IMG/VR virus record: IMGVR_UViG_3300037245_004243
Location: 32,001-96,000 of that record
Direction: 5' to 3' (one strand)
Length of the DNA: 64,000 nucleotides
Origin: an uncultured virus (IMG/VR IMGVR_UViG_3300037245_004243)
Taxonomy: Duplodnaviria > Heunggongvirae > Uroviricota > Caudoviricetes
Shown: piece by piece, positions 14,422 through 57,463 of the stretch
How positions within the stretch are numbered: the first letter of the stretch is position 1
Layout of the letters: the number at the start of each line of letters is the position of its first letter
The notes under the pieces: generated by a model
Told to the model about the DNA's origin: nothing
The model's input: only the letters and a program-made list of their open reading frames with translations
Databases searched by the model: none
Position numbers and translations under genes: made by a program

Positions 14422-14610
14422 CTAACCCTGGTTAATGTCACCAATAATTGTTGTTTGGACCCTGGCAAGAATCCTGAAATCACCCCATTCACATAGCGAA
14501 ATGCAATCAGGGAGTTCAGTTATTTCGGTATCGATGGAATTCCATAGATAATCATCTTCATTTTCGGGCTCGGGGACGATTTCTGTCCATGGGAAAATTT
14601 TTGTTGCCAT
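14422..14610 (-). CDS. hypothetical protein similar to the N-terminus of the giant protein
   Basis: SIDTEITE....SLCEWGDFRILARV resembles AIETEITE..TSWCGPGTFLVLARI. Confidence 0.6.
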   Translation of the reverse strand: MATKIFPWTEIVPEPENEDDYLWNSIDTEITELPDCISLCEWGDFRILARVQTTIIGDINQG

Positions 14611-14759: not shown

Positions 14760-15529
14760 TAATTCTCCGTATTGGTCGTTATAACAACATTTACTGACAT
14801 CGCACCATCCGCCTCTCTTTCAAGAGCAGTTATTTCGTTGAAAGTATGATTAATATTTGCAATATCCAGGCACCGGTTGCTGTCATCAGTAAAACGAATA
14901 TTGATAATTTTGATAATGCTCTCGTCTTTGATCGGCGGATAAAGATAACCTTTTATCGTGAAATCAATATCGGCCATAACTGTGCGATCTTCTTCAGGGC
15001 CGAATTCATTTGTAATATCCAGGTTCATCTGGTTCAAAACTATGGATATGTTTCGACGGATTCCTAACTCAGGAATCTCCTCCACAATTAAGGTATAATC
15101 TGGTTTGAAAAAGGTACCGACCTGCTCGATGATTTGCATCATATCATCTGTGTATTCGGTCCAGATAGAAAACTGCACCGAGAAATTATACGGCACCGGG
15201 GTATACATGAAAATTTCCCGGTCACCATCCATTTCAATCGGTATCTCATTTAGCTGTGGCTCTTTCCGGCTCACGTCTGGAGCAAGCGCAGTAATCAGAA
15301 AACTCATCCGAGGCAGTGTCGTGCTGATATGACGGCTTGATGTTCCAGATTCATTTTGCAGCAAATAAAACATTTTCGATTTGCCGACATATGAACACGG
15401 GACGACAATATCCTTGATTATTTTATTGTCTTTATCCCGCCGCAATACATGAACATCTTCAAAAATATGATGGAATGCCACGACATATTTTTTGATCATT
15501 TCCCAATAAAAGTGTTTTTGTGATAACAT
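14759..15529 (-). CDS. gp15: tail terminator / sheath stabiliser, T4 gp15-like
   Basis: HFY...IKKYVVAF..IF, TLPRMSF, PVPYN, QIIEQV..FF.P, KGYLYPP. Confidence 0.92.
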   Translation of the reverse strand: MLSQKHFYWEMIKKYVVAFHHIFEDVHVLRRDKDNKIIKDIVVPCSYVGKSKMFYLLQNESGTSSRHISTTLPRMSFLITALAPDVSRKEPQLNEIPIEMDGDREIFMYTPVPYNFSVQFSIWTEYTDDMMQIIEQVGTFFKPDYTLIVEEIPELGIRRNISIVLNQMNLDITNEFGPEEDRTVMADIDFTIKGYLYPPIKDESIIKIINIRFTDDSNRCLDIANINHTFNEITALEREADGAMSVNVVITTNTEN

Positions 15530-15789
15530 TACATCTCCATTTTGCCGTCAATAAATCGCTTCGGCTTTATCATTCCCGTGATTTTTGGATCATTTAAGGT
15601 GACAATCCATTCGCCGTCTTTGCTGTACATAAAAACCGGTTTGCCTGGATTCTCCTTGCTGAGTTTGATGCTCTTATCCTCTGCGGCGCCCAATGATTTT
15701 TTCTGTCCAATATCACGTTTTTTTGATTTTTTGGTATGCCGCATTGATAGCGCCGAAGCCTCTATTAAAATATCCCTGTAAGTTTTCAT
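15529..15789 (-). CDS. putative internal head protein with CTS-like leader
   Basis: Begins MKTYRDILIE|A. Confidence 0.65.
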   Translation of the reverse strand: MKTYRDILIEASALSMRHTKKSKKRDIGQKKSLGAAEDKSIKLSKENPGKPVFMYSKDGEWIVTLNDPKITGMIKPKRFIDGKMEM

Positions 15790-29534: not shown

Positions 29535-29745
29535 ATTGGAAAAATTTATTAGAGAAAACGGGCTGCAGAAACGGAATGGATTAGACGAGTGGTATAGCCG
29601 CGACGGGAAGACCCGGCTTGTTAAATTGGGCGCCCGGTATCGCCTGGATGTCAAAATCAAAAATTGGTCCGCATTTCATTCCGATTATATTATCGGTCAC
29701 CGGGAGCGTGAATTCAAAAGCGTTGTCGGTCGACAACGCTATTAG
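29524..29745 (+). CDS. hypothetical protein
   Basis: 73-aa ORF, last of the + strand island. Confidence 0.45.
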   Translation: MEFKLEKFIRENGLQKRNGLDEWYSRDGKTRLVKLGARYRLDVKIKNWSAFHSDYIIGHREREFKSVVGRQRY

Positions 29746-31130
29746 AATTTTATTTCGGTCCAGGGCTTGATCGTTGTTTTTTCTCTGATGTTTGCGCCAC
29801 CTGTTCGAACGATTTCTTTAAAGAATGCCCGTGTCCATTCGCCAAGCTGACCAACCCGGCCAGCAACCCATTTTCTAAATGCTTCGGCAAATGCCTCAGC
29901 CGGATTTGTATTTCCGTAATCGGTAATAAATTCTAATGTGACACGTTCACCAGAATGTTGCTTTTGCATCCAACCCGTGTATATCGCTAATTTTTTCATA
30001 AACCCGCGCTCGCTATCTTGATTATAATCGTATGAAGCATATTTATCTTGCACACTCCAGATAGGGGTCCGGTCGGCTAAATTTATGAAAACGGTTTTTA
30101 GTGTCGGGTCATCAATATTCGCCCTGGCATCAGCAAGAATGTCTTTCCGCTTCTTGAAATGGCCATATTTAGTATCGAAATATCGATCACAAAATTTCTG
30201 GATCATCTCGTCATTCATATCGATCATGCCGCTATTGATTTTATCTTCCCATGCTTTTTGTGCGCGATTGGGTACCCGCCTGAACCAATATCGATGGCCG
30301 ATTTCATGGACGAGCGTACTGTCATTTAAATTATCGCTCATGCCCAACGGAAAAATATAAAGGGTGTCATCTTCTTTGCGATATGCGCCACCGATCATCC
30401 CGCCGCTTATTCCAGAAACCGTGCTTGGTTTGAAATTGATTTCAACGGTAAAATCTGTTAACGCACTTTTAAGACCGGCCTTTTTTATCGCTCTGACGGC
30501 AACCGGCAAAGATTTTAAAAACTTTTTTATCCATTTTGTGGCGTAATCCGCATGATTAACGTTTTTTACTAAAACATTAACGCCGTGAACATTGACCTGA
30601 TGATCCGGAATGATTTCGCTTATTTTATCCGCTTCATAAACGATTAGCTCATCAATGGCATCGAATGCCGCCTTAAATGCCCTGGTGTATCGGGCAATGT
30701 TTGTTTTTCTTGGATCTGATCCTATGTTGGTGTCTAAAGCCCACGGCGCCCAAAGGTGCTTATCGGTTTTATAATCATAATCCATAGGGAAAAGTGACAT
30801 AATCGAAGTATGTGCCGCCCAACCCTTTTCTCGGACCTTGACCTGATAAATGTTTTCGCCACCTTTTCGGTCGTCGTCATAAGGAAGGTGACTTCGGTCT
30901 AATAATTCATTAAAAACCCACCGCTCCCAATTTGTATTGAATAATTGCCAGGCATTCTTTACCTTCATGAACACCTTCAACGCCCTGTCTGAATCATCAG
31001 TTTTCAGGGACCGATAAAGCTTTGTCATTCGACGCAGATCTTTTTTCCACTGTGTCGCCTTTTTTCTAAAATCGGCAACACGTTTTTCGTAACCCGCGCC
31101 TTCAACTATTTCGGTCCAGGACTTAATCAT
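29742..31130 (-). CDS. zincin-like metallopeptidase, putative internal head protein
   Basis: GGAY...LYI, LVHEIGH, ITDYG.TNPAEAFAEAF; begins MIKSWTEIVE|G. Confidence 0.7.
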   Translation of the reverse strand: MIKSWTEIVEGAGYEKRVADFRKKATQWKKDLRRMTKLYRSLKTDDSDRALKVFMKVKNAWQLFNTNWERWVFNELLDRSHLPYDDDRKGGENIYQVKVREKGWAAHTSIMSLFPMDYDYKTDKHLWAPWALDTNIGSDPRKTNIARYTRAFKAAFDAIDELIVYEADKISEIIPDHQVNVHGVNVLVKNVNHADYATKWIKKFLKSLPVAVRAIKKAGLKSALTDFTVEINFKPSTVSGISGGMIGGAYRKEDDTLYIFPLGMSDNLNDSTLVHEIGHRYWFRRVPNRAQKAWEDKINSGMIDMNDEMIQKFCDRYFDTKYGHFKKRKDILADARANIDDPTLKTVFINLADRTPIWSVQDKYASYDYNQDSERGFMKKLAIYTGWMQKQHSGERVTLEFITDYGNTNPAEAFAEAFRKWVAGRVGQLGEWTRAFFKEIVRTGGANIREKTTIKPWTEIKF

Positions 31131-31437
31131 CGGTATCATCGTCCTTTGCGTCCTTTGTGACCGCCCCTATATTGGGAACAGAAATGTAATCGGACATTAT
31201 CCGGGGTCCGAATATTTCAATTTTCTTCTTTATCATTCGATATCTTGATTGATCTTCCATACCTTGCCAGTCCCAACTTTCATCATTCCAGCAAAAATCT
31301 TTTGTAAACTTGGTTTTCTGTGAAATATCACGCATTTGCCGGGTTTTGCACTTTGGGCATTTTAATTGAGCCTCTGCCGGTCTTAACAGAGGCTCGAATT
31401 TAGTTTTACATTTCGGACAACCAAATTTATAAGACAC
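31123..31437 (-). CDS. FmdB-like zinc-ribbon protein
   Basis: Y.F.CPKC..KFE......CPKC. Confidence 0.6.
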   Translation of the reverse strand: MSYKFGCPKCKTKFEPLLRPAEAQLKCPKCKTRQMRDISQKTKFTKDFCWNDESWDWQGMEDQSRYRMIKKKIEIFGPRIMSDYISVPNIGAVTKDAKDDDTDD

Positions 31438-31453
31438 CCGGCAAACTTTCTGA

Positions 31454-32074: not shown

Positions 32075-32096
32075 AATTTTTCTCCTTTAAAATGAT

Positions 32097-32714
32097 TTAC
32101 TGTTCTCCGAAAATATTAGTCTCATCAAAATTTAAAATATCACTGGCCTCATCTTCAAACTGATCGGCCTCGTCCGTGCCCTCCTTTATGTCATTCATAA
32201 AAGTATCGATATCGTCAACCATACCTTCAGCACTTTCGAATCGCTCATGTGAATATTTGAACAATGTGAGGGTCAAACGAAACATCATTTGCCCGGCACC
32301 GAACTGATAAAATCCCTGAGGTTTCGCAGCGTGATCGACTTTGAACATTTTCTGGCTTGCTGGATGATATATCAGGTCACCTTCAAAAGGTACATCCATG
32401 CCCGTCTCTTTTTTGAAAACATCCACGCCCACCGTTAATATTAATTGATCGTCCACGGTAAAACCAAATTTGCCGAATAGGTCGCCATTGCCTTCGAATT
32501 GCTGGAAGTTTTCGATGTACATTGTGATGGTCTTACTGGAATCAAATTTGTTGCTGCCATCCTCCCCAAATATATTATCTGGATTCTCCAATTTTCTCTG
32601 CAAATAGACGAAATCGATGCCGTATATTTCTGCGACTTCATTACACATTCCCCGGTAAAGGTTGTATTCCGGATCTGCCTCGTCGACATGATGTTTAAAA
32701 TATGGATTACCCAT
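32097..32714 (-). CDS. gp14: neck protein
   Basis: NPYF, YG....YL.R, IFGED..NKF, MYIEN...FEG.GD.F.KFG, P.EGDLIY.P, FYQ.G, F.YS.E. Confidence 0.93.
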   Translation of the reverse strand: MGNPYFKHHVDEADPEYNLYRGMCNEVAEIYGIDFVYLQRKLENPDNIFGEDGSNKFDSSKTITMYIENFQQFEGNGDLFGKFGFTVDDQLILTVGVDVFKKETGMDVPFEGDLIYHPASQKMFKVDHAAKPQGFYQFGAGQMMFRLTLTLFKYSHERFESAEGMVDDIDTFMNDIKEGTDEADQFEDEASDILNFDETNIFGEQ

Positions 32715-33159
32715 TATTTCCCCAATATTTTAGAGCGACCGTTTTGTCAGCGCCTTTTAATAAATCATAATTGATGTAATTAATATTTTCTGGCTTGAGC
32801 CGTTTCAAAGGTATCATTTTTGAGCCATCCCAAATACTCATTAATGCTGGAGGTACATTCTCATAAGTTTTCCATTCACGGGGTCTGCCAGCTTCGATAT
32901 CAAAATCTCGTTTCACCTGTAAAATTGCAATTGGCTCGCTTTGCTTGACAAATTGCGAAATAAAATAAAACGCTTCGTTATATGTCTCGGCCAGAAATAT
33001 TTTATCTCCCATACCGGAATAGCCATGCGATTTCGTATTTGATGCGGACCCAATTTCCAATCCATTAGATTTCATGGACGACAAATTACTCGAGCGAGTT
33101 CCATGAAATAGAATTTTAGGTTTTGTGCCCTCGGCCAGTAGTTGCCTAAAGGATTTCAT
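32707..33159 (-). CDS. CTS-like leader plus ADP-ribosyltransferase-like (KptA/Tpt1-like) fold
   Basis: MKSFRQLLAE|G; LFHGT...L.S...NGL, IFLA.....A, NVPP. Confidence 0.6.
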   Translation of the reverse strand: MKSFRQLLAEGTKPKILFHGTRSSNLSSMKSNGLEIGSASNTKSHGYSGMGDKIFLAETYNEAFYFISQFVKQSEPIAILQVKRDFDIEAGRPREWKTYENVPPALMSIWDGSKMIPLKRLKPENINYINYDLLKGADKTVALKYWGNNG

Positions 33160-33833
33160 AGTCCGCCAATTTTATTAAAGAGTTTTTCGAACGGGAATTT
33201 TTTCTGTTTCTCTTCAATATCTTTATGGATAAAATTTGCAAGTTGCCGCGCATCCCAATTAGGATCGCCTTGCTTATAATTGAATTTACGCCAGACCTTT
33301 TCAGGGATAATCTCATAATAATAAATTTCTTTATTCCCGCCCATCGTCGGGTCCATTGCCTTTTTACCATCTATTAAAAAAGCATGGGTCGTTGTGTTAT
33401 GCCCGGTTGCATATTGGAGAACTTTTTCTTTAGCAGGATTCTGCTGCACCGCTCTTTTCATATCATCGAAAACTTGTGGATTGGCCATTATACCATATGC
33501 AAGTTTCATTTTTGGATAATCGGCGCCGAAACGATGCATAAAATCAAGAGCATTATAAAAGCAACCATGCCTTACACAGGAAGCGCCGAGCTCTTTTAAT
33601 CCTTTCGGGAGTCTCTTTGCGCCTTTTGATACATTTCCTTTTTTTGCGGCCTCTACCATAAAACCAATGGCATAATGATCTCGAGTAAGATTAATGCGCA
33701 AATATTCGTTATTTATGCCTTCATCGGGATATTGTTTTGCCCACATCCGGCCAAGATCCTGGAGGTGTTTTACGATATTATCAGCGAGATCACTAACTCC
33801 ACTTTCGGTCAGAATTTGATGAAAGGTTTTCAT
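33156..33833 (-). CDS. CTS-like leader plus Cys-His-Asp (papain/transglutaminase-like) domain
   Basis: MKTFHQILTE|S; GCFYNA...LAYG...HAFL......DPT. Confidence 0.55.
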   Translation of the reverse strand: MKTFHQILTESGVSDLADNIVKHLQDLGRMWAKQYPDEGINNEYLRINLTRDHYAIGFMVEAAKKGNVSKGAKRLPKGLKELGASCVRHGCFYNALDFMHRFGADYPKMKLAYGIMANPQVFDDMKRAVQQNPAKEKVLQYATGHNTTTHAFLIDGKKAMDPTMGGNKEIYYYEIIPEKVWRKFNYKQGDPNWDARQLANFIHKDIEEKQKKFPFEKLFNKIGGL

Positions 33834-33854
33834 GTATACCCCTAATTTTGTATA

Positions 33855-33931
33855 TGGTGGACCGAGTAGGATTTGAACCTACGACCTGAGCCGTGCAAAA
33901 GCCCTGCTCTCCCAGACTGAGCTACCAGCCC
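33855..33931 (-). tRNA. tRNA-Ala (TGC)
   Basis: GGGCTGG-TA-GCTC/GAGC D arm, GGGCT-TTTGCAC-GGCTC anticodon arm, GTAGG-TTCAAAT-CCTAC T arm, TCGGTCC-A-CCA; G3:U70 Ala determinant. Confidence 0.95.
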
Positions 33932-33934
33932 ACA

Positions 33935-34348
33935 TTATGCTATCTCGATATTGGATATCTTTTTAATATTATAGACAAAAACTTGTTTACCGAGATCACT
34001 GGCATCAATCCCATATCTTACAACATCTCGCGTATATTGCTGAGGAGATCCGGCAATGATACCAACAACACTGTCCAAAGTTTCAAATTTGTCGCCCTTC
34101 CAAACATTACCTTTGAATTTAAATTTCAGAACGATAATTTCCCGACGCCCGAAAAACGCTTCAACAGCCTTTTTTGATTTGGCAGCGCTTACCGCATAAT
34201 CGTTCGCCCATCTCGGCTTAATATAAATTAATTTGAAGCCGCCAGCGAGGATTTTTTTGACGTTATCTGGATTTCTCACGCCGTGATATAGGGTCATCGA
34301 CCGGACTTTTTCCTCGCCCTCATTTAACCACGTTTTAAAATTTTGCAT
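33935..34348 (-). CDS. CTS-like leader plus ART-like fold
   Basis: MQNFKTWLNE|G; LYHG......KIL.GGF ... GIDA.....VFVYN...I. Confidence 0.55.
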   Translation of the reverse strand: MQNFKTWLNEGEEKVRSMTLYHGVRNPDNVKKILAGGFKLIYIKPRWANDYAVSAAKSKKAVEAFFGRREIIVLKFKFKGNVWKGDKFETLDSVVGIIAGSPQQYTRDVVRYGIDASDLGKQVFVYNIKKISNIEIA

Positions 34349-34349
34349 T

Positions 34350-34700
34350 TTAGCCCTTATTTAAATGTATTCTCATATCCTTCATGAGATCTCTTTTCCC
34401 GGCCAATTTCGGCTTTTTCTTCCCGGCTAATTCATCATCAGAAAGTTGATCGGCAAAGTGTCGCCCGGCAATGGAATCCAGAAAGACGCGCATGGAATTT
34501 TCTGTCGCTTTGAAATACTTTGAAAGGATTGTGGCATATCTGGCAAATGCCCTGGCGGTGCCCGTCATATCCATATTCAGACGATTATAGGCCACGCCAT
34601 GAAACCCTCTGTGCTCATTATCACTCATCTGCTGCTTTTTTGACGCAAAGTCTGGCCAACTTGCAGTATTTATTTCCAGTATTTTTCGGTAAGTTTTCAT
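34350..34700 (-). CDS. putative internal head protein
   Basis: ATG 34700: MKTYRKILE; cargo contains FLDSIAGRHFADQL. Confidence 0.65.
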   Translation of the reverse strand: MKTYRKILEINTASWPDFASKKQQMSDNEHRGFHGVAYNRLNMDMTGTARAFARYATILSKYFKATENSMRVFLDSIAGRHFADQLSDDELAGKKKPKLAGKRDLMKDMRIHLNKG

Positions 34701-34704
34701 TTCA

Positions 34705-35016
34705 TCAGTCTCCCACAAATTTTCGTTTATTTCGGAATGACATCCCGGTCAACGTTTTTCGGATATCATCATCCTTCAAATGCCCCAGGGAAAGCCCTAA
34801 TCTTCGGCATTGCTTGAGCATATCATCCCGCCCCATCGTTTTAGCGCATTGATCAAATTGCAATGTTAGCGCCCCACGTGTGCTAAATTTGCCACGCTTA
34901 AAAGCCATTGGCGGACTATACGCGCCAACGCCTGTCCCGGCCACGGTCATCTCATCGAGGTCTTCATCGGGTCCGGCCACAACCCCATCTAATATATCCC
35001 GGTATGAATGGGTCAT
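34705..35016 (-). CDS. putative internal head protein
   Basis: MTHSYRDILD...DLDE|MTVAGTGVGAYSPPMAF; strong GGAGG RBS. Confidence 0.6.
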   Translation of the reverse strand: MTHSYRDILDGVVAGPDEDLDEMTVAGTGVGAYSPPMAFKRGKFSTRGALTLQFDQCAKTMGRDDMLKQCRRLGLSLGHLKDDDIRKTLTGMSFRNKRKFVGD

Positions 35017-35038
35017 CGTATTTCCCCTCCTCCATCCA

Positions 35039-35452
35039 TTATAACCAGCTCCCCATAGATAATTTATCGAAGGCTTTGAATGCGGTCTTGGCGTTTGCCA
35101 GATCTTTTCCGAACTTCCCGGCAGTTCCTTCGTTTAACTTGTTTATCTCGTCAAGCAAGTCACGCATATTATCAGCCACACCATAATAAGCCTCGTGAAG
35201 GTCATTGATATTTTTCTGATTTCCTTTTGACTCTTTACGATAGGCGTCAATAACGGCCTTTTCCTGTGACGACTCGGAGATATTCTTACCTTTGATTCTA
35301 TTCAGCATAATACCATATACATCCCCGCTGCCGAAATCGACCTGGGCCATATCACCATCGATCTTGATAACTTTGCCCTTTCGGCCACCTTTGTTTAATT
35401 CGTCGCCAACCTTTACTTTGCTCTCAATTATAATATTCCGAAATGATTTCAT
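35039..35452 (-). CDS. putative internal head (poly)protein with an SH3/KOW-like first domain
   Basis: MKSFRNIIIE|S; further ISE|S and LNE|G sites. Confidence 0.65.
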   Translation of the reverse strand: MKSFRNIIIESKVKVGDELNKGGRKGKVIKIDGDMAQVDFGSGDVYGIMLNRIKGKNISESSQEKAVIDAYRKESKGNQKNINDLHEAYYGVADNMRDLLDEINKLNEGTAGKFGKDLANAKTAFKAFDKLSMGSWL

Positions 35453-35498
35453 GGATTTTTCCTTTTTATTTTAAGCTTACCCTTAAAGGGCCTTAATG

Positions 35499-35897
35499 TC
35501 AAGCTTTTTGAGTCGTCCAGACAATTTTATCGCCCTTTTCAAGATCTTGAGCATCCGGCAATCTTTGAACTTCAAAATCGCCATTTTTCATTTTTACAAC
35601 GGCCTGATGTGATCCTTTGCGACGATATTCCTTTTCTGCTTCCTTTTTCGCCGTTTTTAAATCTGAATACTCTTCCTGTAAAATTTCCCTATATGATTTC
35701 ATAGTTGTAATCTTTTCTGTTATTAAAATTTTGTTACCCTGCATCTTCCAGGAGATGCCCGGTATAGAATTTAAAAACTTTTTAGCGCCTGGCCAAAACT
35801 CAACCACCAATTTGCCGCTCACTTTTAAACGTCGGTAAAAGCGCCGCTGCTGGAAATCCATCTCCTCGCGAATGAGATCTTTAGGCTCCACGAACAC
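35499..35897 (-). CDS. putative internal head protein with an internal CTS-like leader at 35702
   Basis: Codon 66 begins MKSYREILQE|E. Confidence 0.6.
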   Translation of the reverse strand: MFVEPKDLIREEMDFQQRRFYRRLKVSGKLVVEFWPGAKKFLNSIPGISWKMQGNKILITEKITTMKSYREILQEEYSDLKTAKKEAEKEYRRKGSHQAVVKMKNGDFEVQRLPDAQDLEKGDKIVWTTQKA

Positions 35898-36150
35898 CCA
35901 GTTCCTTTAGACGTTTGAAGGCTACTTCGGCCTCGTCGTGTAGATTTTGATTCTCGAGTGCGTCAACCCAAATTTCAATCTTTTCGACTTTATTCATCTT
36001 TTTGGATCGCAAATTGAGTGCCTTGGTGAATTTTGCTCTGTCACCCTTTGCTCTGACTTCAAAATCATGGATTCTTTTTTCGGCCTTGTCGATCTCGGCC
36101 TGGCGACGATTCTCGGTCATTTCTTTTAAAATTTGTCTATACGATTTCAT
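35881..36150 (-). CDS. putative internal head protein
   Basis: MKSYRQILKE|M. Confidence 0.7.
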   Translation of the reverse strand: MKSYRQILKEMTENRRQAEIDKAEKRIHDFEVRAKGDRAKFTKALNLRSKKMNKVEKIEIWVDALENQNLHDEAEVAFKRLKELGVRGA

Positions 36151-36165
36151 TGGTGAATTCCCCCT

Positions 36166-36366
36166 TTATCCGAAAAAATGATCATAAAAATCATTATTTC
36201 CTATATTTGCCATGCTATGAATCAATCCAGAACCTGTATTTGACACCTCATCCTTTTTTAATTCTGCTATTACTTTAGGCAGACTTTTTTGGATTTTTTC
36301 AAGATAGGATATCATATCTTTCATTGGATCTGATTTTTCATTACAAATATTCTTAAAAGTTTTCAT
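36166..36366 (-). CDS. putative internal head protein
   Basis: MKTFKNICNE|K. Confidence 0.65.
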   Translation of the reverse strand: MKTFKNICNEKSDPMKDMISYLEKIQKSLPKVIAELKKDEVSNTGSGLIHSMANIGNNDFYDHFFG

Positions 36367-36704
36367 TTAATTTTTCCCGTTACTTCTGGTTTATTTTTCA
36401 TTCTTTCGCCACCACCGGATGTTTGCCAAACTTCAAAATTTCCTTTACCGGCAGACGCTATTTCATAACCTTTTCGTTTCGCTGAAGGGTGTTTGTATGC
36501 CCAAGCAGTGTAATCGGTTGCTCGCCGGAAAACCAGCCATTTAAATTTTCCTATTTTAACAACAGTATCTCTCTGAACGCTATCGGGTAATTTATTCAAA
36601 TCTATTTTCGGCAAACCTAAAGGTTCCACATTATCAAATCCATCAAACCCGGGAGGAAGCGATGAAAGTGTTGATTCTTTTAAAATTTGTCTGTAATTTT
36701 TCAT
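36363..36704 (-). CDS. putative internal head protein
   Basis: TAATG-coupled ATG 36704: MKNYRQILKE|S. Confidence 0.7.
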   Translation of the reverse strand: MKNYRQILKESTLSSLPPGFDGFDNVEPLGLPKIDLNKLPDSVQRDTVVKIGKFKWLVFRRATDYTAWAYKHPSAKRKGYEIASAGKGNFEVWQTSGGGERMKNKPEVTGKIK

Positions 36705-36961
36705 TAACTTCGCCAAGAAGCGCCTGAAAGTTTACCCAAATTCTTTTTGACATCTCTGCGAGGGTTATTAACCCATATCCCCTGACCGTCTTTCTTTTTG
36801 CCGGTCCAGATAACGTCTCCTTTTGGTATAATAACGCCGTTCTGAAGATGTAATTTGCCGCCTTCGATTTTTACAATTTTGATGAGCTCTGCGCCAACGC
36901 CACCGTCTCTGTAAAAATTGCCAGCCTGTAATCCTTCTAAAATTTGTCGAAAGGTTTTCAT
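36704..36961 (-). CDS. putative internal head protein
   Basis: MKTFRQILE|G. Confidence 0.7.
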   Translation of the reverse strand: MKTFRQILEGLQAGNFYRDGGVGAELIKIVKIEGGKLHLQNGVIIPKGDVIWTGKKKDGQGIWVNNPRRDVKKNLGKLSGASWRS

Positions 36962-36969
36962 ATTTTTCC

Positions 36970-37722
36970 TTATGCGTACACCGGATCTGGTGGTTCAGAG
37001 TATTTTTCTTCCAGCTCTATTAAAAGTTTTTCTTTATCAGCCTCACCCTTTTCAAGTATACCGGAGGCATTCACCGTAACACCGCCCGGAAGTTGCGCTC
37101 CATCATATTTACCGAGATTGACGCCCCATTGAATCCGCGCCAGGGCCACACTATATTTTTTAAGCCATAAGGAGTCGCTTACGGTATCGGTGTCTTCGGT
37201 ATCAACCGCGCTTTGGATGACATGAAGTATTCGGGTGCCGGTACGAGTTGGTGTCGAAGGAAATGTCAGCTTTTTAGTGACTTCATTAAATTCGAAAAGG
37301 ATATGGGTTTTATAAGTGTCTTCCCACAGCGCCATTCTTTGCCGCATAACTTCCACGGAGGTAACATCGAAATATCCATCAACATCGCCATATCCGCCGC
37401 CGCCCTGGCCATTGAATCCCGGCCTCAGAATAAGCAATGGCTCATCATCAATCCAAAGGGAAGACGAACCTGTACCTTCGATATTAAGGCATTCCATAAC
37501 ACTTTGAATGGAATCCGGCAAAGTGTATTCATTGGACCCGGCTGATACCTCAAGCCCAAGAAACCCAATATTGCATGCATCGTAATGGGATTCAGTGAAA
37601 GTTTTCAGCGCCTCATCAACGCAATCATCCAATTGGGAGTCATCGACTTCAACTCTTATGACCGGGTGACCGAGCTTACGGAAAATATATTGCTTTAATT
37701 CGGATATTTTTAAAGTGCCCAT
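36970..37722 (-). CDS. gp13: neck protein
   Basis: ELKQYI.RKLG.PVI.VEV...QL.DC...AL..F.E.HYD; WLKKY..AL...QWG.NL.KY.G..LPGGVT.N. Confidence 0.95.
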   Translation of the reverse strand: MGTLKISELKQYIFRKLGHPVIRVEVDDSQLDDCVDEALKTFTESHYDACNIGFLGLEVSAGSNEYTLPDSIQSVMECLNIEGTGSSSLWIDDEPLLILRPGFNGQGGGGYGDVDGYFDVTSVEVMRQRMALWEDTYKTHILFEFNEVTKKLTFPSTPTRTGTRILHVIQSAVDTEDTDTVSDSLWLKKYSVALARIQWGVNLGKYDGAQLPGGVTVNASGILEKGEADKEKLLIELEEKYSEPPDPVYA

Positions 37723-38018
37723 TAAACAACTCCACGTATGCCGGATTTGATAAATTTATCTATTGAAAAATCAAATGCGCCATTTTCGGACTTTTGGCTT
37801 AAGAGAACATATTTGTTGATTTTTTTAAGGTCTTCTTTTTTAACAAAAACTTTAATCCCGGAATCGCCTGTTCCAACACCACCGGTTTTCAGATTTTTGC
37901 TGCCTATTTCCATGCCAAGCAAAAATGCAGCATTGACATTTTTGGGCGACAAAAGTAAACCTTGATAGGTACCAGAGGCTTCATCAATGCCCGGCACATC
38001 TTTCCAATAGTCTACCAT
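37722..38018 (-). CDS. hypothetical protein with MVDYWKDVPGI leader
   Basis: The first 11 residues are identical to the neighbouring ORF, then IDE|A. Confidence 0.65.
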   Translation of the reverse strand: MVDYWKDVPGIDEASGTYQGLLLSPKNVNAAFLLGMEIGSKNLKTGGVGTGDSGIKVFVKKEDLKKINKYVLLSQKSENGAFDFSIDKFIKSGIRGVV

Positions 38019-38029
38019 TTTATTCCTCC

Positions 38030-38353: not shown

Positions 38354-38355
38354 TT

Positions 38356-38604
38356 TTATAACCCCTTATTCAGATTTGCAATTTGCTCCAGCAAATCTAA
38401 TATTTTATTGTTGAGAGCAGCATGTTTTTGGGATGATTTCATTCCTGCCGTTATGGTGATATCTGCCATATTGGCCGCTTGTCCCAACTTCCCCCACGCC
38501 TCCATCAAAAGTTTTTTAATCTGTTTGATATTGACGTTTCCTGAAGATGATCGCGCCTCGGTGATGTATCTATCCATTTCCATTTTGGTTCGTATATTTT
38601 TCAT
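38356..38604 (-). CDS. hypothetical protein, MK(N/D)IRT leader family
   Basis: MKNIRTKMEMDRYITE|A. Confidence 0.6.
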   Translation of the reverse strand: MKNIRTKMEMDRYITEARSSSGNVNIKQIKKLLMEAWGKLGQAANMADITITAGMKSSQKHAALNNKILDLLEQIANLNKGL

Positions 38605-38613
38605 TTTATCCCT

Positions 38614-39126: not shown

Positions 39127-39134
39127 AATATCCC

Positions 39135-39395: not shown

Positions 39396-39404
39396 TTTAA
39401 TCCT

Positions 39405-39572: not shown

Positions 39573-39573
39573 T

Positions 39574-39912: not shown

Positions 39913-39915
39913 AAT

Positions 39916-40282: not shown

Positions 40283-40555
40283 TTATGCCGTTGTTTTTAC
40301 AAATTTAAATGCTGTAATGGCCTGGCTCAATGTTTCCTTTGATTGATAGCATCGATGGGTATTGCACACATATCGAATTTTACCCTTTTTGTCATCAGAT
40401 TTCCATATCCCGCATGTTCTTTCGCCATTCGGTCCATGATGCCAAGTCGCGCCAGCGTTCATTGCCTTGGATCGCTCGTCTGATGTCAAAGCTACCTTAT
40501 GTTTCTGGAGATTTTTAAAATCGCCTTCTTTTAATACCCAATAAAATGTTTTCAT
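40283..40555 (-). CDS. putative internal head protein
   Basis: MKTFYWVLKE|G. Confidence 0.6.
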   Translation of the reverse strand: MKTFYWVLKEGDFKNLQKHKVALTSDERSKAMNAGATWHHGPNGERTCGIWKSDDKKGKIRYVCNTHRCYQSKETLSQAITAFKFVKTTA

Positions 40556-53680: not shown

Positions 53681-53899
53681 TTAATCCTCTATTTCGATTT
53701 TATAATCTGGAAAATTCTTTTTTGCAAATTTCGAGGCTTCCTCTGACGAATTAAATGATTTTTTTACAACCGGGTCGGGCTCATCTTTTTCATAAATAAA
53801 CCATTTGGAAGTCGTTTTGCTTATAACCAATGGATAATTCTTATCAGGTGTATAATTTAATTTTAACTGTGCCTCGAATAACTTTCTGAATGATTTCAT
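53681..53899 (-). CDS. putative internal head protein
   Basis: MKSFRKLFE|A, inserted between gp25 and gp6. Confidence 0.6.
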   Translation of the reverse strand: MKSFRKLFEAQLKLNYTPDKNYPLVISKTTSKWFIYEKDEPDPVVKKSFNSSEEASKFAKKNFPDYKIEIED

Positions 53900-54309: not shown

Positions 54310-55068
54310 TTACGGAGACGCATATGGTTCATAATATGTGACGATGTCATCATATTTGGCTTTATTTAATGCCTGAACATCGCGCCCGGTCGTTATACTT
54401 GATATTCTGGTAAGCAACCCATATGTACCATTAAAGTCGATAGGATCATTTATATGGGAATATCCTGTTGTAAAGGCATTCTGGTCTTGGATTATCCCGG
54501 CATCTGAATCCCATCCAGTCCCATCATAGGCATAAACTACCTCACAGCGCTCGACGGTATTTAATGGATTTGGGAGTGCCGTTTCGCCTGGATCTAAATT
54601 CACAGTCACGCTACCCGCCACAGCAGGGGGATCAGGTCCAGGAATAGGCGCAACAATTACTTGACCGATGATAGTTCTTTCGATATCACCGGGCTGGCAT
54701 TTCACCTTTGTGCCAACTGTAAAAGAAGGGAATGACATCCCTGAAAATTGAAAACTGTTATCGCTGAGTCTGTCGAAAATACCGGGACCATTAATTGGAT
54801 TTCCATCATACGCCCAAATATTCCAAGACGAAATTGAGGTACTGGTATAATAAGTTTTAATTGATTGCCAATTATTTAGAGCCCGTTTTGCTTCTAATCT
54901 GCTATCAAGAGAGGTCTGTGCCGCGCCCATTACACCATCAGTTATGGTCGTGATTTCATCATTTAATGAAACAAGTTCAGCATCTAATCTGTCGACCATT
55001 ATCGCCAAATTTGATGCTATCACGGTATATTCATCAACTAAAATTCTGAGGTCTTCGGCTGTTGTCAT
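54310..55068 (-). CDS. hypothetical virion protein
   Basis: Coiled-coil N-terminus; likely start ATG 55068 (ATGA overlap). Confidence 0.65.
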   Translation of the reverse strand: MTTAEDLRILVDEYTVIASNLAIMVDRLDAELVSLNDEITTITDGVMGAAQTSLDSRLEAKRALNNWQSIKTYYTSTSISSWNIWAYDGNPINGPGIFDRLSDNSFQFSGMSFPSFTVGTKVKCQPGDIERTIIGQVIVAPIPGPDPPAVAGSVTVNLDPGETALPNPLNTVERCEVVYAYDGTGWDSDAGIIQDQNAFTTGYSHINDPIDFNGTYGLLTRISSITTGRDVQALNKAKYDDIVTYYEPYASP

Positions 55069-55523
55069 ATCTCTTTTCCTTTTAGATACCAAGCACGACC
55101 ATTCGGAATATCAGTGATGACCCATTTTAAATTATTGGTCAAAATTTCTTGCTCCTCTGGATAAATTGACATCTGGCTTATATCTAAATAAGTTTTTGCT
55201 TTAATTTCGATGTAAACTGGTATCTCGCCGCCACCTGCAAAGGTACCTCTCCGGTTTTTATCTTTACTGAAAGCATTTAAACCCGTTTCAATTAGTTTAG
55301 AACCAACCTCCCACTCCCCATTTTCAACTATTTTTTGAACTTCGGATTCCTTTAAATGATATCCCCGGTATATCGTAATCGGTTTATTTCTCTTGATATT
55401 TTTTATGAGGAGTTTTTGATCAGACATCGAATATGGATATAAGGATGCATCTCCACCACCTTTCGCCGACCAAGCTTTTGCACTATCTATCAAACCCTCA
55501 AAAAGTTTTTTAAAAGTAATCAT
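55065..55523 (-). CDS. CTS-like leader plus R-S-E clade ADP-ribosyltransferase (Alt/VIP2-like)
   Basis: MITFKKLFE|G; IYRG...G.NAFS...S.YPEEQEIL. Confidence 0.7.
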   Translation of the reverse strand: MITFKKLFEGLIDSAKAWSAKGGGDASLYPYSMSDQKLLIKNIKRNKPITIYRGYHLKESEVQKIVENGEWEVGSKLIETGLNAFSKDKNRRGTFAGGGEIPVYIEIKAKTYLDISQMSIYPEEQEILTNNLKWVITDIPNGRAWYLKGKEI

Positions 55524-55827: not shown

Positions 55828-56700
55828 TTAATTTAGTGATATCATCGATGCGGTCACCATTAACATTCCATCAATACTGATGGTTCCGGTTGCCGCATTA
55901 ATTGTTAAGGCGCCATCTGCATCCACGATAATTGATGTCGCTGATTTTAAATGCATTTTGGTAGATTCCACATTAAATCCGGTCACGCCTTGGACAGTAA
56001 TATTGCTGCCGCCCTTTATCAAAATGTTTCGGTCTCCCTCAACAATTATAAATTCCTCTCCTTTAATCTTGGTGACTTGGATGCCGTCTGGATGAATCTC
56101 CTTAAAGGACCCTGATTTATGTTGGAGATTTATGCGCTCTTTACCAGATGATCGGTCAAGCTCTAAAACATTATCACCAGATTGTATCACTAAATTATCT
56201 GGATATTCCGGATCAAATGTTGTTTCTGGCTCATCCCAGGTTTCATCGATGCATTCTACGCCGGTCTCAACTTCTGATTTTTTAGCGATCACGGCATCAG
56301 GGACCGGAGACCCGGTCGCATAATTCGATATGGGGGATGTGCCCAGGGAATCCTCAGTTGGATTTACACCATTTGGATCACTAAACCCCTTGGTAAAATC
56401 AGGCAACGTTTCTGGTATTTTAGCAACCGATCCCAATATAATCGGGAATTGCTCCTCATCATCAATGTACGATAAAACGACAACAGTGCCATTTTTTGGT
56501 ACAGAAAATTGGCTTGATTCATTTGACATGATCGTGCCGGATTGCAAAGTCTGCGCCCAAGGTAAGTCCGCCACAGGCATATAATCGGTCTGAGTTGAAT
56601 CGGTCCGATTTTCTGTATGCTTACCGATTATTCGAACCTGCACCCGCCCAAGCTTTTCAGAATCAATATTATTTTCGACTATGCCGTAATAAAGTCTCAT
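55828..56700 (-). CDS. gp5: baseplate spike, gp5-like, with no lysozyme domain
   Basis: YGIVEN..D...LGRVQVR..G.H, LPWA, P.ILGS, P.YP.N, E.D...G.ERI...H.SG.F.EI.PDG. Confidence 0.9.
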   Translation of the reverse strand: MRLYYGIVENNIDSEKLGRVQVRIIGKHTENRTDSTQTDYMPVADLPWAQTLQSGTIMSNESSQFSVPKNGTVVVLSYIDDEEQFPIILGSVAKIPETLPDFTKGFSDPNGVNPTEDSLGTSPISNYATGSPVPDAVIAKKSEVETGVECIDETWDEPETTFDPEYPDNLVIQSGDNVLELDRSSGKERINLQHKSGSFKEIHPDGIQVTKIKGEEFIIVEGDRNILIKGGSNITVQGVTGFNVESTKMHLKSATSIIVDADGALTINAATGTISIDGMLMVTASMISLN

Positions 56701-57017
56701 AATTGATTGTAATAATCCTCGACAGACATACCCTTGCCCATCTTTGTAAGTGCATCCAATCGGTTAACAAAAACCACCGGGACTTTTTTGCCAAGTTGCT
56801 TGTATGCCGCCGCGCGATGGTTGCCATCAATAATTTTAAAAAGTCCAATTGGATCGAGCCATTTTTTATTAATAAATGAAGGTGTGAGTTTTTCGCCACC
56901 CTTTATGCGCTTGACATATTTTTGCACAATAGAGTCTTTGTAGACCTCTATTTTTAACTTGCTTGCCGGGAGCATTAATGCTTTCGCCTCATTTAAAATT
57001 TGTCTGAAAGTTTTCAT
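56697..57017 (-). CDS. CTS-like leader plus ParB/Sulfiredoxin-like domain
   Basis: MKTFRQILNE|A; V.KY...I..G..L.P ... IIDGNHRAAA...LG..VPV. Confidence 0.75.
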   Translation of the reverse strand: MKTFRQILNEAKALMLPASKLKIEVYKDSIVQKYVKRIKGGEKLTPSFINKKWLDPIGLFKIIDGNHRAAAYKQLGKKVPVVFVNRLDALTKMGKGMSVEDYYNQL

Positions 57018-57463
57018 ATCACTATTTTTATAATTTTTGGATTGCGGACAACATAAATCATTTTGCCCATTTCATCAGTCTGGAGCATATCAATTTTGTT
57101 ATCGTTTAAATATTTTTCTATTGCCACGGCTCGCTGTTTGGAATTGCTCATAGAAAAATCTTTCATCAGCGATTTGCCTATGGCTTCGATTTTATCACCG
57201 AGTTCATTTCCCTCATATGAAATATCCCCGCTCGGATCTAAGAGCGGATTTTTAGGTCTCAATTCAACCTTGATTGAAACTGGTCCCCATCGGGTGTTTG
57301 GTTTATCCGTGAAATAAACCCCATTTCCATACAACCGCGCCCGTGTAATTTTCTTTTGCAATTTAAATCCAGTTGCCCGTATACCATCTGCGACCTTTTT
57401 CTCGACATTATGATATGTAACAAAATTTGTTTTTTCAGTTAAAATTTGATGAAAACTTTTCAT
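57014..57463 (-). CDS. CTS-like leader plus ART-like (H-Y type) fold
   Basis: MKSFHQILTE|K; TYH......I...GF.....LYG.GVYFT ... L...NPL ... YVV.NP..IK. Confidence 0.65.
   Translation of the reverse strand: MKSFHQILTEKTNFVTYHNVEKKVADGIRATGFKLQKKITRARLYGNGVYFTDKPNTRWGPVSIKVELRPKNPLLDPSGDISYEGNELGDKIEAIGKSLMKDFSMSNSKQRAVAIEKYLNDNKIDMLQTDEMGKMIYVVRNPKIIKIVI

Follow-up and report, generated by a model that had tools for sequence, protein, structure and literature searches.

An uncultured T4-like phage in which a leader resembling the T4 capsid targeting sequence heads many, mostly unrelated small genes

The window analyzed here, a stretch of 64,000 nucleotides from an uncultured virus, contains homologs of the T4 neck genes. 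In T4, the genes for gp13 and gp14 are one base apart, whereas here their homologs are separated by an array of 11 minus-strand ORFs and one tRNA-Ala, tightly packed inside the gp13–gp14 neck unit, and no terminator-like site on the array's own strand was seen within the main array. A leader of the form MK(T/S)(F/Y)xxIL.E, hereafter type 1, was found at the start of 10 of the 11 ORFs and internally in the other. An earlier note on this DNA had quoted eleven leaders, and all of them were recovered at their places on the minus strand between the two neck genes; the tRNA had been missed. In the lines below, a hyphen inside a leader marks the junction after its Glu.

36970..37722, minus: gp13-type neck protein (head-tail adaptor), bounding the array upstream (phrog_211 Ad2, 1.6e-29)
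36704..36961, minus: type-1 leader gene 1, MKTFRQILE-G, 85 aa, basic
36363..36704, minus: type-1 leader gene 2, MKNYRQILKE-S, 113 aa, start overlapping the upstream stop
36166..36366, minus: type-1 leader gene 3, MKTFKNICNE-K, 66 aa
35881..36150, minus: type-1 leader gene 4, MKSYRQILKE-MTENRR, 89 aa
35499..35861, minus (ORF 35499-35897): conserved N-domain, followed by an internal type-1 leader and a variable C-terminal body
35039..35452, minus: type-1 leader gene 6, MKSFRNIIIE-S, 137 aa
34705..35016, minus: leader variant MTHSYRDILDG, cleavage position occupied by Asp
34350..34700, minus: type-1 leader gene 8, MKTYRKILE-I, 116 aa (phrog_8020, 2e-7)
33935..34348, minus: leader variant MQNFKTWLNE-G, 137 aa, LYHG motif in the body
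33855..33931, minus: tRNA-Ala, anticodon TGC, within the array (ARAGORN)
33156..33833, minus: type-1 leader gene 10, MKTFHQILTE-S, 225 aa, with Cys91, His150 and Asp161 invariant in its family
32707..33159, minus: type-1 leader gene 11, MKSFRQLLAE-G, 150 aa, PARP/DarT-like LFHGTRSS NAD-site motif
32097..32714, minus: gp14-type neck protein, downstream flank of the array (PF11649, 4e-30; phrog_679, 1.9e-44)

Leader genes were not confined to the array, and their setting was that of late structural operons. The six further starts reported earlier (15789, 40555, 53899, 55523, 57017 and 57463) and a variant at 31130 were present as claimed, and these six lie in tail and baseplate blocks, not in head blocks.

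15529..15789, minus: type-1 leader gene, MKTYRDILIE-A, 86 aa, adjoining gp15
40283..40555, minus: type-1 leader variant MKTFYWVLKE-G, 90 aa, near fibre genes
53681..53899, minus: type-1 leader gene, MKSFRKLFE-A, 72 aa, between gp25 and gp6
55065..55523, minus: leader MITFKKLFE-G, 152 aa, R-S-E-type ADP-ribosyltransferase-like body, baseplate block
56697..57017, minus: type-1 leader gene, MKTFRQILNE-A, 106 aa, DGNHR motif, weakly ParB/Srx-like
57014..57463, minus: type-1 leader gene, MKSFHQILTE-K, 149 aa, PARP / ART-PolyVal-like ADP-ribosyltransferase
29742..31139, minus: HEIGH-motif protein, 465 aa, variant leader MIKSWTEIVE-G, with the K.WTEI motif again at the C-terminus
14422..14610, minus: acidic 62-aa protein, start MATKIFPWTEIVPE, the WTEIV variant as in 29742..31139

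The window has 17 type-1 leader genes, and the earlier count of about 18 was too low for the 129.5-kb record, which is estimated to be 74% complete: the record has at least 26, and two more leader classes come in addition. In this T4-like phage one tag stands at the head of 26 or more small genes, most of them unrelated.

Chance matches are excluded as the source of these leaders. A strict DNA pattern (M-K-x-[FY]-x-x-[ILFM]-[ILFM]-x-E) matched 9 times in the window, with every match on the minus strand; 100 shuffles gave an expectation of 0.03, and none of them reached 9. A six-frame regular expression search of the whole record gave 27 core matches, 22 of them directly after the opening Met (once Met-Ile) of an ORF of at least 61 residues. 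Unsupervised clustering of N-termini yielded one cluster of 20, with no more than 2 members in any other, and a position matrix derived from a set of 15 leaders scored 13.9 or more exclusively at residue 2-3, save for the conserved internal copy, the next-best internal score being 8.1. That internal leader (MKSYREILQE, ATG at 35702) follows an N-domain of about 55-63 aa (QQRRFYRRLK..LVVEFW.GAKKFL) shared by this genome and 7 relative loci. Over the sequence read, the N-domain leads in frame into a leader-type MK.. peptide in this genome and at six of the seven loci; at L011 it is followed by a degenerate leader and a stop. The leader had previously been called internal, which it is, as part of a conserved architecture and not through a mis-called start.

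The leader is selected as a peptide and not as DNA, because nucleotide identity averages 63% over the first 30 nt against 29% over the upstream 30 nt, and Ser (TCN and AGT) and Arg (AGR and CGN) are encoded by mixed codons. We therefore give almost no credence to the idea that the shared start acts in translation initiation or as an mRNA element, or is a scar left by the recombination of gene cassettes, with a peptide that has no role. Its A-rich ATGAAA start is common among highly expressed phage genes, and the type-3 leaders described below are near-identical in DNA over about 33 nt within one genome, which suggests gene conversion; however, synonymous sites of type-1 leaders are free to vary, the 30 nt upstream are at random identity, the peptide is retained across homologs of only 25-54% identity, and the in-frame internal leader is kept wherever noted above.

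It is likely that MK(T/S)(F/Y)(R/K)xIL.E is a capsid targeting sequence (CTS) of the T4 kind. T4 ipII and ipIII start with MKTYQEFIAE and ipI with MKTFKEF. Passages of PMC9026906 assign targeting to CTS residues 4 and 7 and processing to residues 8 and 10, state that Asp10 blocks processing, and give the gp21 cleavage motif as L/I-x-E, with gp22 cut at a Glu-Ala bond. In a logo of 49 non-redundant leaders of the clade, Lys occupied position 2 in 43, Phe or Tyr position 4 in 47, Ile or Leu position 7 in 46, Leu, Phe or Ile position 8 in 46, and Glu position 9 or 10 in 48; the following residue was Ala, Gly or Ser in 29 of those 48. The leader thus matches the T4 CTS at the positions on which targeting and cleavage depend and ends in the gp21 motif, while the consensus differs at positions 5-8 (RQIL here, QEFI in T4). 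The corresponding head genes are also in the window.

62764..63645, minus: gp21-type prohead serine protease (S77), 293 aa (PF03420, 5e-33)
61439..62164, minus: gp22-type scaffold, 241 aa, 12 [LI]-x-E sites (phrog_237)
60001..61365, minus: gp23-type major capsid protein (phrog_138)

His76 and Ser131 of the protease align with His85 and Ser140 of T4 gp21, and the gp23-type protein has L-x-E at residues 23, 51 and 58, in the N-terminal stretch aligned with the T4 propeptide. The start of T4 gene 61.1 also fits the strict pattern, and its product is not known to be packaged; therefore, a leader match alone is no proof of packaging.

Two further leader classes were found, MVDYWKDVPGI.E, also as MVDY(W/F)KDVPG(I/L).E, and MK..RTR.EM..I.E.

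37722..38018, minus: type-3 leader gene, MVDYWKDVPGIDE-ASGTYQ, 98 aa
38030..38353, minus: type-3 leader gene, MVDYWKDVPGIADG, 107 aa, unrelated body
38356..38604, minus: type-2 leader gene, MKNIRTKMEMDRYITE-A, 82 aa
40555..40743, minus: type-2 leader gene, MKDIRTRWDMEKLIE-S, 62 aa

The classes replace one another on the same cargo with the junction exactly after the Glu, as for type 3 and type 1 (55% identity over 88 aa, E = 3e-33), type 1 and type 2 (54% over 76 aa, E = 3e-30) and type 2 and type 3 (E = 2e-15); the cargo of 37722..38018 stands behind a type-1 leader in the relative L007. Conserved bodies begin after L-x-E even within longer proteins. The body of gene 4 (36150) is the C-terminal module of longer proteins in relatives, again straight after L-x-E, the C-terminal half of gene 6 (35452) occurs there as free cargo with type-1 or type-2 leaders, and the 35016 protein has a second site, DLDE-MTVAGTG, ahead of its conserved body. 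The C-terminal domain of the protease itself (after LHE232) matches a free L015 protein (59% over 63 aa, E = 3e-20) that starts with the type-1 leader MKNFRQILRE. Both extra classes most likely serve the same route as type 1.

That the leaders address a different part of the virion (tail lumen, baseplate or neck), or that the three classes go to different compartments, seems to us quite improbable. The six leader genes among tail and baseplate genes could be read in this way, as could the type-3 genes, which in the window and in all 9 relatives having them are always placed immediately upstream of gp13. However, the tag fits the T4 head-core tag at the tested positions, its cleavage word belongs to the head protease, one cargo domain is fused to that protease, and the classes swap on the same cargo. 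Moreover, according to part of PMC5512222, genes of Alt-clade ADP-ribosyltransferases lie beside baseplate genes and their products are packed in the head, and the ADP-ribosyltransferase-like gene at 55523 is likewise placed in the baseplate block. The link of a "tag plus cargo" system to the T4 CTS, proposed in the earlier note, is well supported by the T4 ipII and ipIII starts, the logo, the gp21 homolog and the exchange at the Glu, while delivery and role are carried over from T4.

Regarding the cargoes, BLAST among 14 leader-protein bodies gave no pair with E < 0.1, in agreement with their previous description as unrelated, and most leader proteins had no family match. Enzyme calls, all below curated thresholds or on weak fold scores, point to several candidate activities. 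The 33159 body matched Pfam PARP at 1.9e-4, below cut-off, and the DarT1 profile from the PDB at 8.5e-4; the 55523 body has YRG, SFS and EEQE motifs and an Atlas score of 0.94 to ADPrib_exo_Tox clusters; the 57463 protein reached 0.93 on Atlas features and a structure TM of 0.64-0.74; and the 57017 protein matched NCBIfam SerK at 1.1e-3, far below cut-off. Leaders were present on 4/4, 2/2 and 5/5 homologs of the 33159, 55523 and 57463 proteins, respectively. The 33833 family, with its invariant residues, is a probable papain/transglutaminase-like enzyme, and in 32 of its 45 small homologs an [LIFV]xE word ends at residue 4-16, compared with 20 of the 104 plus-strand ORFs of this genome. The 34348 body may be distantly ADP-ribosyltransferase-like (hhalign against the 57463 family, probability 59%, a figure inflated by the shared leader). 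As a side observation, profile comparison hints at distant kinship of three ADP-ribosyltransferase-like bodies, with scores likewise inflated by the leader.

Nine close uncultured relatives with gp13 59-75% identical have leaders directly after gp13; L010 and L012, in the same range, showed none, both ending about 0.1-0.4 kb past gp13. Among 31 more distant gp13 loci there was one real leader match (L004) and one spurious match. Only 6 of the 11 cargoes are shared with relatives of 75% identical gp13, 3 of those as single domains only, and such high turnover fits conflict genes better than structural parts. We consider it unlikely that the tag loads the head mainly with structural proteins, namely DNA-condensing or core proteins or degraded scaffold accessories, instead of injected effectors. 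The leader proteins are small (median 114.5 aa) and basic (pI > 8.5 in 22/24, against 15/56 other minus-strand genes, p = 1.3e-7), as such proteins could be, although a basic character equally suits internal proteins of the targeted kind; the scarcity of family matches points the same way, and an acidic leader gene at genome 96014-96271 takes the place of core gene gp67, flanked by the portal and protease genes. Against this, the ADP-ribosyltransferase-like cargoes and the Cys-His-Asp family look like enzymes, the turnover suits conflict genes better, and the basic internal proteins of T4 are described in part of PMC12373910 as restriction inhibitors.

Considering the likeness to the T4 CTS, we propose a plausible model in which the phage probably packages unusually many proteins, including some enzymes. 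As in T4, the leader would bind the scaffolding core during prohead assembly, and the gp21 homolog, assuming the same specificity, would then cleave behind Glu9 or Glu10. Once mature, the basic proteins would remain within the packed DNA, and some of them at least would follow it into the next host. There, modification of host targets would fall to the ADP-ribosyltransferase-like, Cys-His-Asp and ParB/Srx-like cargoes, and small cargoes may block defence nucleases. All of this, from packaging and cleavage to injection before transcription and a role in counter-defence, is argued by analogy with T4. The concept of a tag and internal proteins has already been published for T-even phages; passages of PMC12373910 give T4 only three internal-protein genes with the leader and T-even phages at least 10 internal proteins (Repoila 1994, as cited there).

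The proposed restriction of leaders to the late strand held as an enrichment (24/80 curated minus-strand genes against 2/104 plus-strand ORFs, Fisher p = 3e-8) but not as an absolute rule, since two leader genes, at genome 128310 and 128561 outside the window, are on the plus strand, in a neighbourhood that looks like replication genes as judged from N-terminal sequence only. The T4 late promoter TATAAATA showed no enrichment here. The word GGTAAATA occurred 20 times against about 7 by hand estimate, and as a recurring word only it gives one candidate near the array.

About window 37112: candidate late promoter GGTAAATA, in the 3' part of the gp13-type gene (recurring word)

All eleven ORFs and leaders that the earlier note had listed were found between gp13 and gp14, two genes that are indeed adjacent in T4, with one base between them, and the six other leader starts and the variant at 31130 were present where they had been reported. 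The shared N-terminal peptide, called here the type-1 leader, resembles MK(T/S)(F/Y)(R/K)xIL.E, and leader proteins are named below by their window start position. With looser variants included, there are 17 type-1 leader genes in the window and 26 in the whole record. The public gene call for 32707-33159 (minus strand) starts at Met29 (122 aa), so that the leader and a conserved HGT motif are lost; automatic gene calling can conceal such leaders.

Features of the main locus (window positions)
32097-32714, gp14
33855-33931, minus strand, tRNA-Ala gene (anticodon TGC), mid-array, in the only sizeable gap of the array (101 nt)
36970-37722, gp13

Four results exclude a chance origin of the shared leaders. 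A DNA pattern strictly encoding M-K-x-[FY]-x-x-[ILFM]-[ILFM]-x-E matched the window 9 times, each time on the minus strand, compared with an expectation of 0.03 derived from 100 shuffles; there were 12 matches in the whole record and 0 in the reversed control, 3 in T4 (ipII, ipIII and gene 61.1), 2 in Syn19, and 0 in HTVC008M, Melnitz and the 156-kb genome of the distant relative L005. A six-frame regex over the record gave 27 core matches, 22 of which lie directly behind a Met (once Met-Ile) that opens an ORF of at least 61 residues. Unsupervised clustering of N-termini returned one cluster of 20 members, all others having at most 2. With a position matrix trained on 15 leaders, all scores of at least 13.9 fell at residue 2-3, bar one conserved internal copy; held-out leaders scored 16.0, 13.9, 8.1, 5.6 and 5.0, and the best unrelated internal site 8.1. 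The first 30 bases of type-1 leaders share a mean nucleotide identity of 63%, compared with 29% for the 30 bases upstream, and their codons are mixed (Ser TCN and AGT; Arg AGR and CGN; Leu TTA, CTG and TTG). Therefore, selection acts on the leader peptide.

The leaders had been described as confined to the late strand. Their enrichment there stood, with 24 of 80 minus-strand genes carrying one compared with 2 of 104 plus-strand ORFs (p = 3e-8), but their absence from the plus strand did not, as two leaders lie on it at genome positions 128310 and 128561. Strand alone is a weak test of lateness, because the T4 ip genes are on the same strand as the T4 early genes.

The record, of which the window covers bases 32001-96000, is linear, measures 129.5 kb and has a CheckV completeness estimate of 74%. 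Family scans identified a T4-type structural module on its minus strand. Among cultured phages, the best hits of the capsid protein come from cyanophages, a pelagiphage and Methylophilales phages, with an identity of only about 34%; megablast of window 30000-40000 against cultured phages gave zero matches, and the search for cultured members of the 33833 family gave a single match, in an uncultured phage record. Judged by sequence comparison, the lineage is a distant uncultured T4-like phage.

T4-type structural module (family scans)
Minus strand, structural genes: small and large terminase, sheath, two tube paralogs, gp15
Minus strand, baseplate genes: gp5, gp5.4 (PAAR), gp25, gp6, gp48, gp53
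Minus strand, head genes: capsid protein gp23, scaffold gp22, S77 prohead protease (PF03420, 5e-33)

Two further minus-strand genes were noted. One (7769-14416), located between those for the small terminase and gp15, encodes a protein of 2215 aa that contains Laminin_G_3 and DUF2341 domains and probably serves as a giant fibre or in decoration. Directly after gp14, a 206-aa acidic protein (31454-32074) carries a tandem DDEATAIPEEVKID repeat and has a weak match to the T4 Inh family (1.7e-4 over 43 aa); T4 Inh is a minor head protein and an inhibitor of the protease.

In the T4 sequence (NC_000866), ipII and ipIII start with MKTYQEFIAE and ipI with MKTFKEF. According to the available part of PMC9026906, the first ten residues of IPIII are enough for head targeting, tag residues 4 and 7 serve targeting and residues 8 and 10 processing, and Asp at position 10 blocks processing and leaves targeting intact; gp21 cuts after L/I-x-E, and gp22 is cut at a Glu-Ala bond. 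The same features appear in the logo built from 49 non-redundant leaders of this genome and close relatives, in which position 4 is aromatic, positions 7 and 8 are hydrophobic and the end is L/I-x-E.

Logo of type-1 leaders (residues and number of leaders)
Position 2: K, 43/49
Position 3: T or S, 37/49
Position 4: F or Y, 47/49
Position 7: I or L, 46/49
Position 8: L, F or I, 46/49
Position 9 or 10: E, 48/49
Residue after the Glu: A, G or S, 29/48

The prohead protease residues His76 and Ser131 align with His85 and Ser140 of T4 gp21, which we take to be catalytic. The scaffold contains 12 [LI]-x-E sites, and the L-x-E sites of the capsid protein (23, 51 and 58) are all within the N-terminal stretch that aligns with the T4 propeptide. 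The best position-matrix scores in the scaffold were 2.6 and 0.1, and no leader-like scaffold repeat was seen in this phage. When the scaffold (241 aa) was modelled together with the leader protein of 85 aa at 36704-36961, the complex scored 0.01 against a mark of 0.34, in a prediction run without controls that speaks neither for nor against such a complex.

A signal-peptide or membrane reading of the leader was set aside by eye, since the leader is short and charged.

In T4 itself, the hypothetical gene 61.1 (NC_000866 18966-19130, minus strand, within locus L050), beside the primase gene 61, begins with MKTFKEFIKE, a full match to the strict pattern; the T4 internal proteins named in the available parts of the sources are Ip1-3 only.

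Two more leader classes were found. Thirteen non-redundant copies of type 3 are present in the clade, each just upstream of gp13. Bodies within the type 2 and type 3 classes are mutually unrelated, bar three orthologous pairs in type 3. Type-3 leaders within one genome have near-identical DNA over about 33 nt and differ synonymously between genomes; the identity within a genome hints at gene conversion or cassette exchange.

Leaders of types 2 and 3
Type 2, MK..(R/K)T(R/K).EM(D/E)(K/R).I.E: window 38356-38604 and 40555-40743, genome 100015-100236
Type 3, M(V)DY(W/F)KDVPG(I/L)(D/N)E: window 37722-38018 and 38030-38353

The classes replace each other on common cargo, which is joined exactly behind the Glu. 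The ASGTYQ cargo has a type 3 leader in 38018 (...GIDE|ASGTYQ, the bar marking the presumed cut) and in the related locus L011, and a type 1 leader in L007 (MKTFKNLLSE|ASGTYQ), the two versions being 55% identical over 88 aa (E = 3e-33). Other pairs among relatives join type 1 with type 2 (L002_5505 and L007_2481, E = 3e-30; L003_12724 and L002_5756, E = 1e-12) and type 2 with type 3 (L002_2158 and L007_693, E = 2e-15).

Conserved bodies start right after L-x-E within longer proteins as well. The body of 36150 (ILKE|MTENRR) forms the C-terminal module of L002_3792 (LEE|MTSARR) and L003_11248 (LLE|MTDHRR), and that of 35016 is preceded by DLDE|M in this genome, by IIDE|M in L002 and by ALNE|V in L003. 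The internal leader at 35702 is located behind a basic N-domain of about 55-63 aa, which was found in this genome and seven relative loci; in the genome and six of the seven loci, within the sequence read, it is followed by an in-frame leader-type MK.. peptide and a variable body, and in L011 by a degenerate leader and a stop. The prohead protease (62764-63645, minus strand) has 293 aa compared with 212 in T4 and carries an extra C-terminal domain. This domain, which follows LHE232, matches a free protein of the related locus L015 (6853-7281) at 59% identity over 63 aa (E = 3e-20). The free protein begins MKNFRQILRE|, and the match ties type-1 cargo to the prohead core. The reading of the leaders as capsid-targeting tags, as first proposed from the sequence, is well supported in silico by the logo, the protease, the cleavage word and the swaps at the Glu.

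A related peptide, K.WTEIV.E, starts a 465-aa HEIGH-motif protein (29742-31139, minus strand), in which KPWTEI occurs again at the extreme C-terminus, and a 62-aa acidic protein (14422-14610, minus strand); it is a possible fourth leader class. T4 Alt is cut at both ends.

Loci of relatives were fetched via gp13 from IMG/VR and metagenome contigs. Type-1 leader ORFs directly follow gp13 in nine of them (L002, L003, L006-L009, L011, L014 and L015), whose gp13 is 59-75% identical to that of this phage, with 12 such ORFs in L002 and 8 in L003. Zero leaders were found in L010 and L012, which are in the same identity range and are short loci ending about 0.1-0.4 kb past gp13. The complete gp13-gp14 interval of L002 (gp13 75% identical) holds 14 ORFs, and only 6 of the 11 array genes have a homolog there, 3 of those over one domain only. 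The cargo turns over fast. Among 31 more distant gp13 loci, one real match (L004) and one spurious match were obtained, and a looser regex matched 6 of 439 ORFs in distant loci compared with 27 of 165 in the close clade. Three of the six are around gp13 and gp14 of L005, a complete, high-GC, 156-kb distant T4-like genome (gp13 30% identical); these small ORFs (10735-13289) have N-termini ending in LL.E (MNKYQIYTDSLLE, MSKLNAYLRSLLNE and MNFFQAYETVLLE). The neck may be an ancient location for tagged genes.

The leader proteins are small, and 22 of 24 have a pI above 8.5 (median 9.5), compared with 15 of 56 other minus-strand genes (median 4.9; p = 1.3e-7); T4 internal proteins are likewise described as basic in the available part of PMC9026906. 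Their bodies are unrelated, as had been claimed, with no BLAST pair at E < 0.1 among 14 bodies and weak profile links only among three ADP-ribosyltransferase-like ones. Most of the cargo has no family match in Pfam, PHROGs or NCBIfam.

Three cargoes give leads to ADP-ribosyltransferases. For 57463, the ESM Atlas neighbours were ART-PolyVal clusters (0.93, 180-183 shared features), the structure gave TM 0.64-0.74 to PARP and ART-PolyVal clusters, and Pfam PARP matched at 0.047. For 33159, Pfam PARP matched at 1.9e-4 (21.5 bits, under the cut-off of 26.7), and the family profile against PDB matched DarT1 (8.5e-4) and PARP1 (0.3) via an LFHGTRSS motif; its AlphaFold model, from 5 sequences, had a pLDDT of 41 and was unusable. 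These are leads to the H-Y-E clade (PARP / DarT / ART-PolyVal). For 55523, the Atlas feature neighbours, a lead only, were ADPrib_exo_Tox (PF03496) clusters (0.94, 159-167 shared features), and YRG, SFS and E(Q/H)E motifs, read by eye, are kept in 3/3 sequences (55523 and two homologs); there was no Pfam match at E up to 0.1. The gene sits in the baseplate block, where genes of Alt-clade enzymes also lie (PMC5512222, available part). It is a lead to the R-S-E clade (Alt/VIP2, ADPrib_exo_Tox). The leader is retained in homologs of all three (33159, 4/4; 57463, 5/5; 55523, 2/2).

An exhaustive search with 33833 gave 53 cluster representatives, and all 31 aligned sequences share C91, N94, G114, H150 and D161. 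Its model (pLDDT 89.6) matched NTAQ1 (3c9q), LapG (4fgo), SseI (4g29), PeiW (8jx4) and N-acetyltransferases by VIA with a Z of only 3.3-4.3; Foldseek against PDB found nothing at E up to 0.001, and the sequence profile against PDB gave noise only. The model offers a lead to a papain / transglutaminase-like Cys-His-Asp enzyme, the fold matches being weak and in one direction. Among small homologs, 32 of 45 have an [LIFV]xE ending at residue 4-16, compared with 20 of 104 plus-strand ORFs here. Seven large or mid-size homologs of the domain (334-2036 aa) are without a Pfam family. The 33833-family Cys-His-Asp domain also forms the N-terminal part of P0016, P0039, P0044, P0051, P0052, P0056 and P0058 (882-2036 aa); P0016, P0039, P0044, P0051 and P0052 were scanned and had no Pfam family, and these large proteins may be polyvalent-type giants. 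The cargo 57017 contains a DGNHR motif and matches SerK (ParB/Srx-fold) faintly (1.1e-3).

In T-even phages, according to the available parts of the sources, the tag, its use as a module and the polymorphism of internal-protein loci are all established (PMC3012670, PMC9026906, PMC12373910, PMC9391042). As in T4, there is here a ten-residue MKT(F/Y) N-terminal tag, aromatic at position 4, hydrophobic at 7 and 8, with Glu at 10 and an L/I-x-E end, in front of unrelated small basic proteins and with a gp21-type protease encoded nearby. In contrast, T4 has three internal proteins, and this 74%-complete record at least 26 tagged genes; and the tag core is QEFI in T4 and the consensus RQIL here. This phage also differs in that its main locus lies within the neck operon, in its two or three additional leader classes and in one conserved architecture with an internal tag. 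The capsid protein, with best hits to cyanophage and pelagiphage at about 34%, also sets this phage apart from the T-evens. T-even internal-protein loci are polymorphic, with at least 10 internal proteins (Repoila et al., 1994, cited in PMC12373910, available part). Those loci are, like the present one, hot spots with leader-only similarity and cargo that varies among close relatives; however, they hold one to few genes per phage, the characterised ones being restriction inhibitors, compared with 11 in a row, enzyme-like cargo and domain shuffling at L-x-E junctions here.

T4 Alt is described as a head-packaged, injected ADP-ribosyltransferase with propeptides cut by gp21 (PMC9026906, PMC5512222, available parts). 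As with Alt, the 55523 gene lies in the baseplate block, and its product has R-S-E-like motifs and a cleavable-looking leader, but it is far shorter (152 aa) and has no significant curated-family match, and the window also encodes PARP / ART-PolyVal-like proteins, which resemble a different ADP-ribosyltransferase clade. In the giant phages phiKZ, 201phi2-1 and SPN3US, ejection or inner-body proteins are cut at S/A-x-E by a gp21-like protease, and the available part of the same review gives few cleavage determinants beyond this short motif (PMC9026906). Processing of head proteins after Glu by a distant gp21 homolog and a large packaged protein load would be common to both systems, whereas motif and lineage differ. 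Polyvalent proteins of phages and conjugative elements, as far as the available part of Iyer et al. (2017, PMC5512222) describes them, also include ART-PolyVal ADP-ribosyltransferases, peptidases and ParB-like domains predicted to be delivered, but in one giant multidomain protein, compared with separate small genes here, each with its own tag. A literature search, covering sources other than subscription journals, found no such tags described beyond the T-evens, save the giant-phage analogy, and the T4-family comparisons PMC1524935 and PMC2993671 contained none of the searched terms on internal proteins or targeting. The present system differs from the known one in scale, locus, enzyme-like cargo, interchangeable tags and a cargo-protease fusion.

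By analogy with T4, the tag would bind the scaffolding core, the gp21 homolog would cut the leader, and the mature proteins would stay among the DNA and be ejected into the host. Head loading with leader cleavage is, on this analogy, probable; that most cargoes are injected effectors, as had been supposed, seems to us about evenly balanced. We also consider a broader scheme, tentatively and with some doubt, in which at least three interchangeable clip-off tags, perhaps with K.WTEIV.E as a fourth and each ending in the cleavage word of the head protease, would bring about 30 proteins (about 1 gene in 6) into the virion. In this scheme, recombination would take place at the cleavage Glu, some small polyproteins would be cut into several cargoes, a fixed N-domain would precede an internal tag, the protease would bear a cargo domain, and the tag class may set copy number or location.

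If the tag reading is true, the packaged protein set could be read from sequence, since the leader flags each member, and this would yield about 30 candidates for first-minute host takeover or anti-defence, several of them enzymes of unknown family. The T4 head-loading mechanism would then be old and widespread. Tag swaps and module boundaries at L-x-E suggest that evolution has a simple way of bringing any protein into the capsid; they also suggest new tags for engineered protein delivery.

The array ORFs overlap or sit close, between the late genes gp13 and gp14, and the array lacks terminator-like sites on its strand, while sigma-70-like sites are not in excess. The T4 late promoter TATAAATA showed no enrichment on the late strand (13 plus versus 2 minus). 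The sequence GGTAAATA recurs upstream of both terminase subunit genes, sheath, gp25, capsid protein, scaffold and a fibre gene, and was also found inside the gp13 3' end and, on the plus strand, immediately before the two leader genes located there. It has 20 copies genome-wide compared with about 7 by a hand estimate from base composition, and may be a late promoter of this lineage, for which it is a candidate on sequence grounds.

Example sites of GGTAAATA (window positions)
21334
22988
37112
61422
62229
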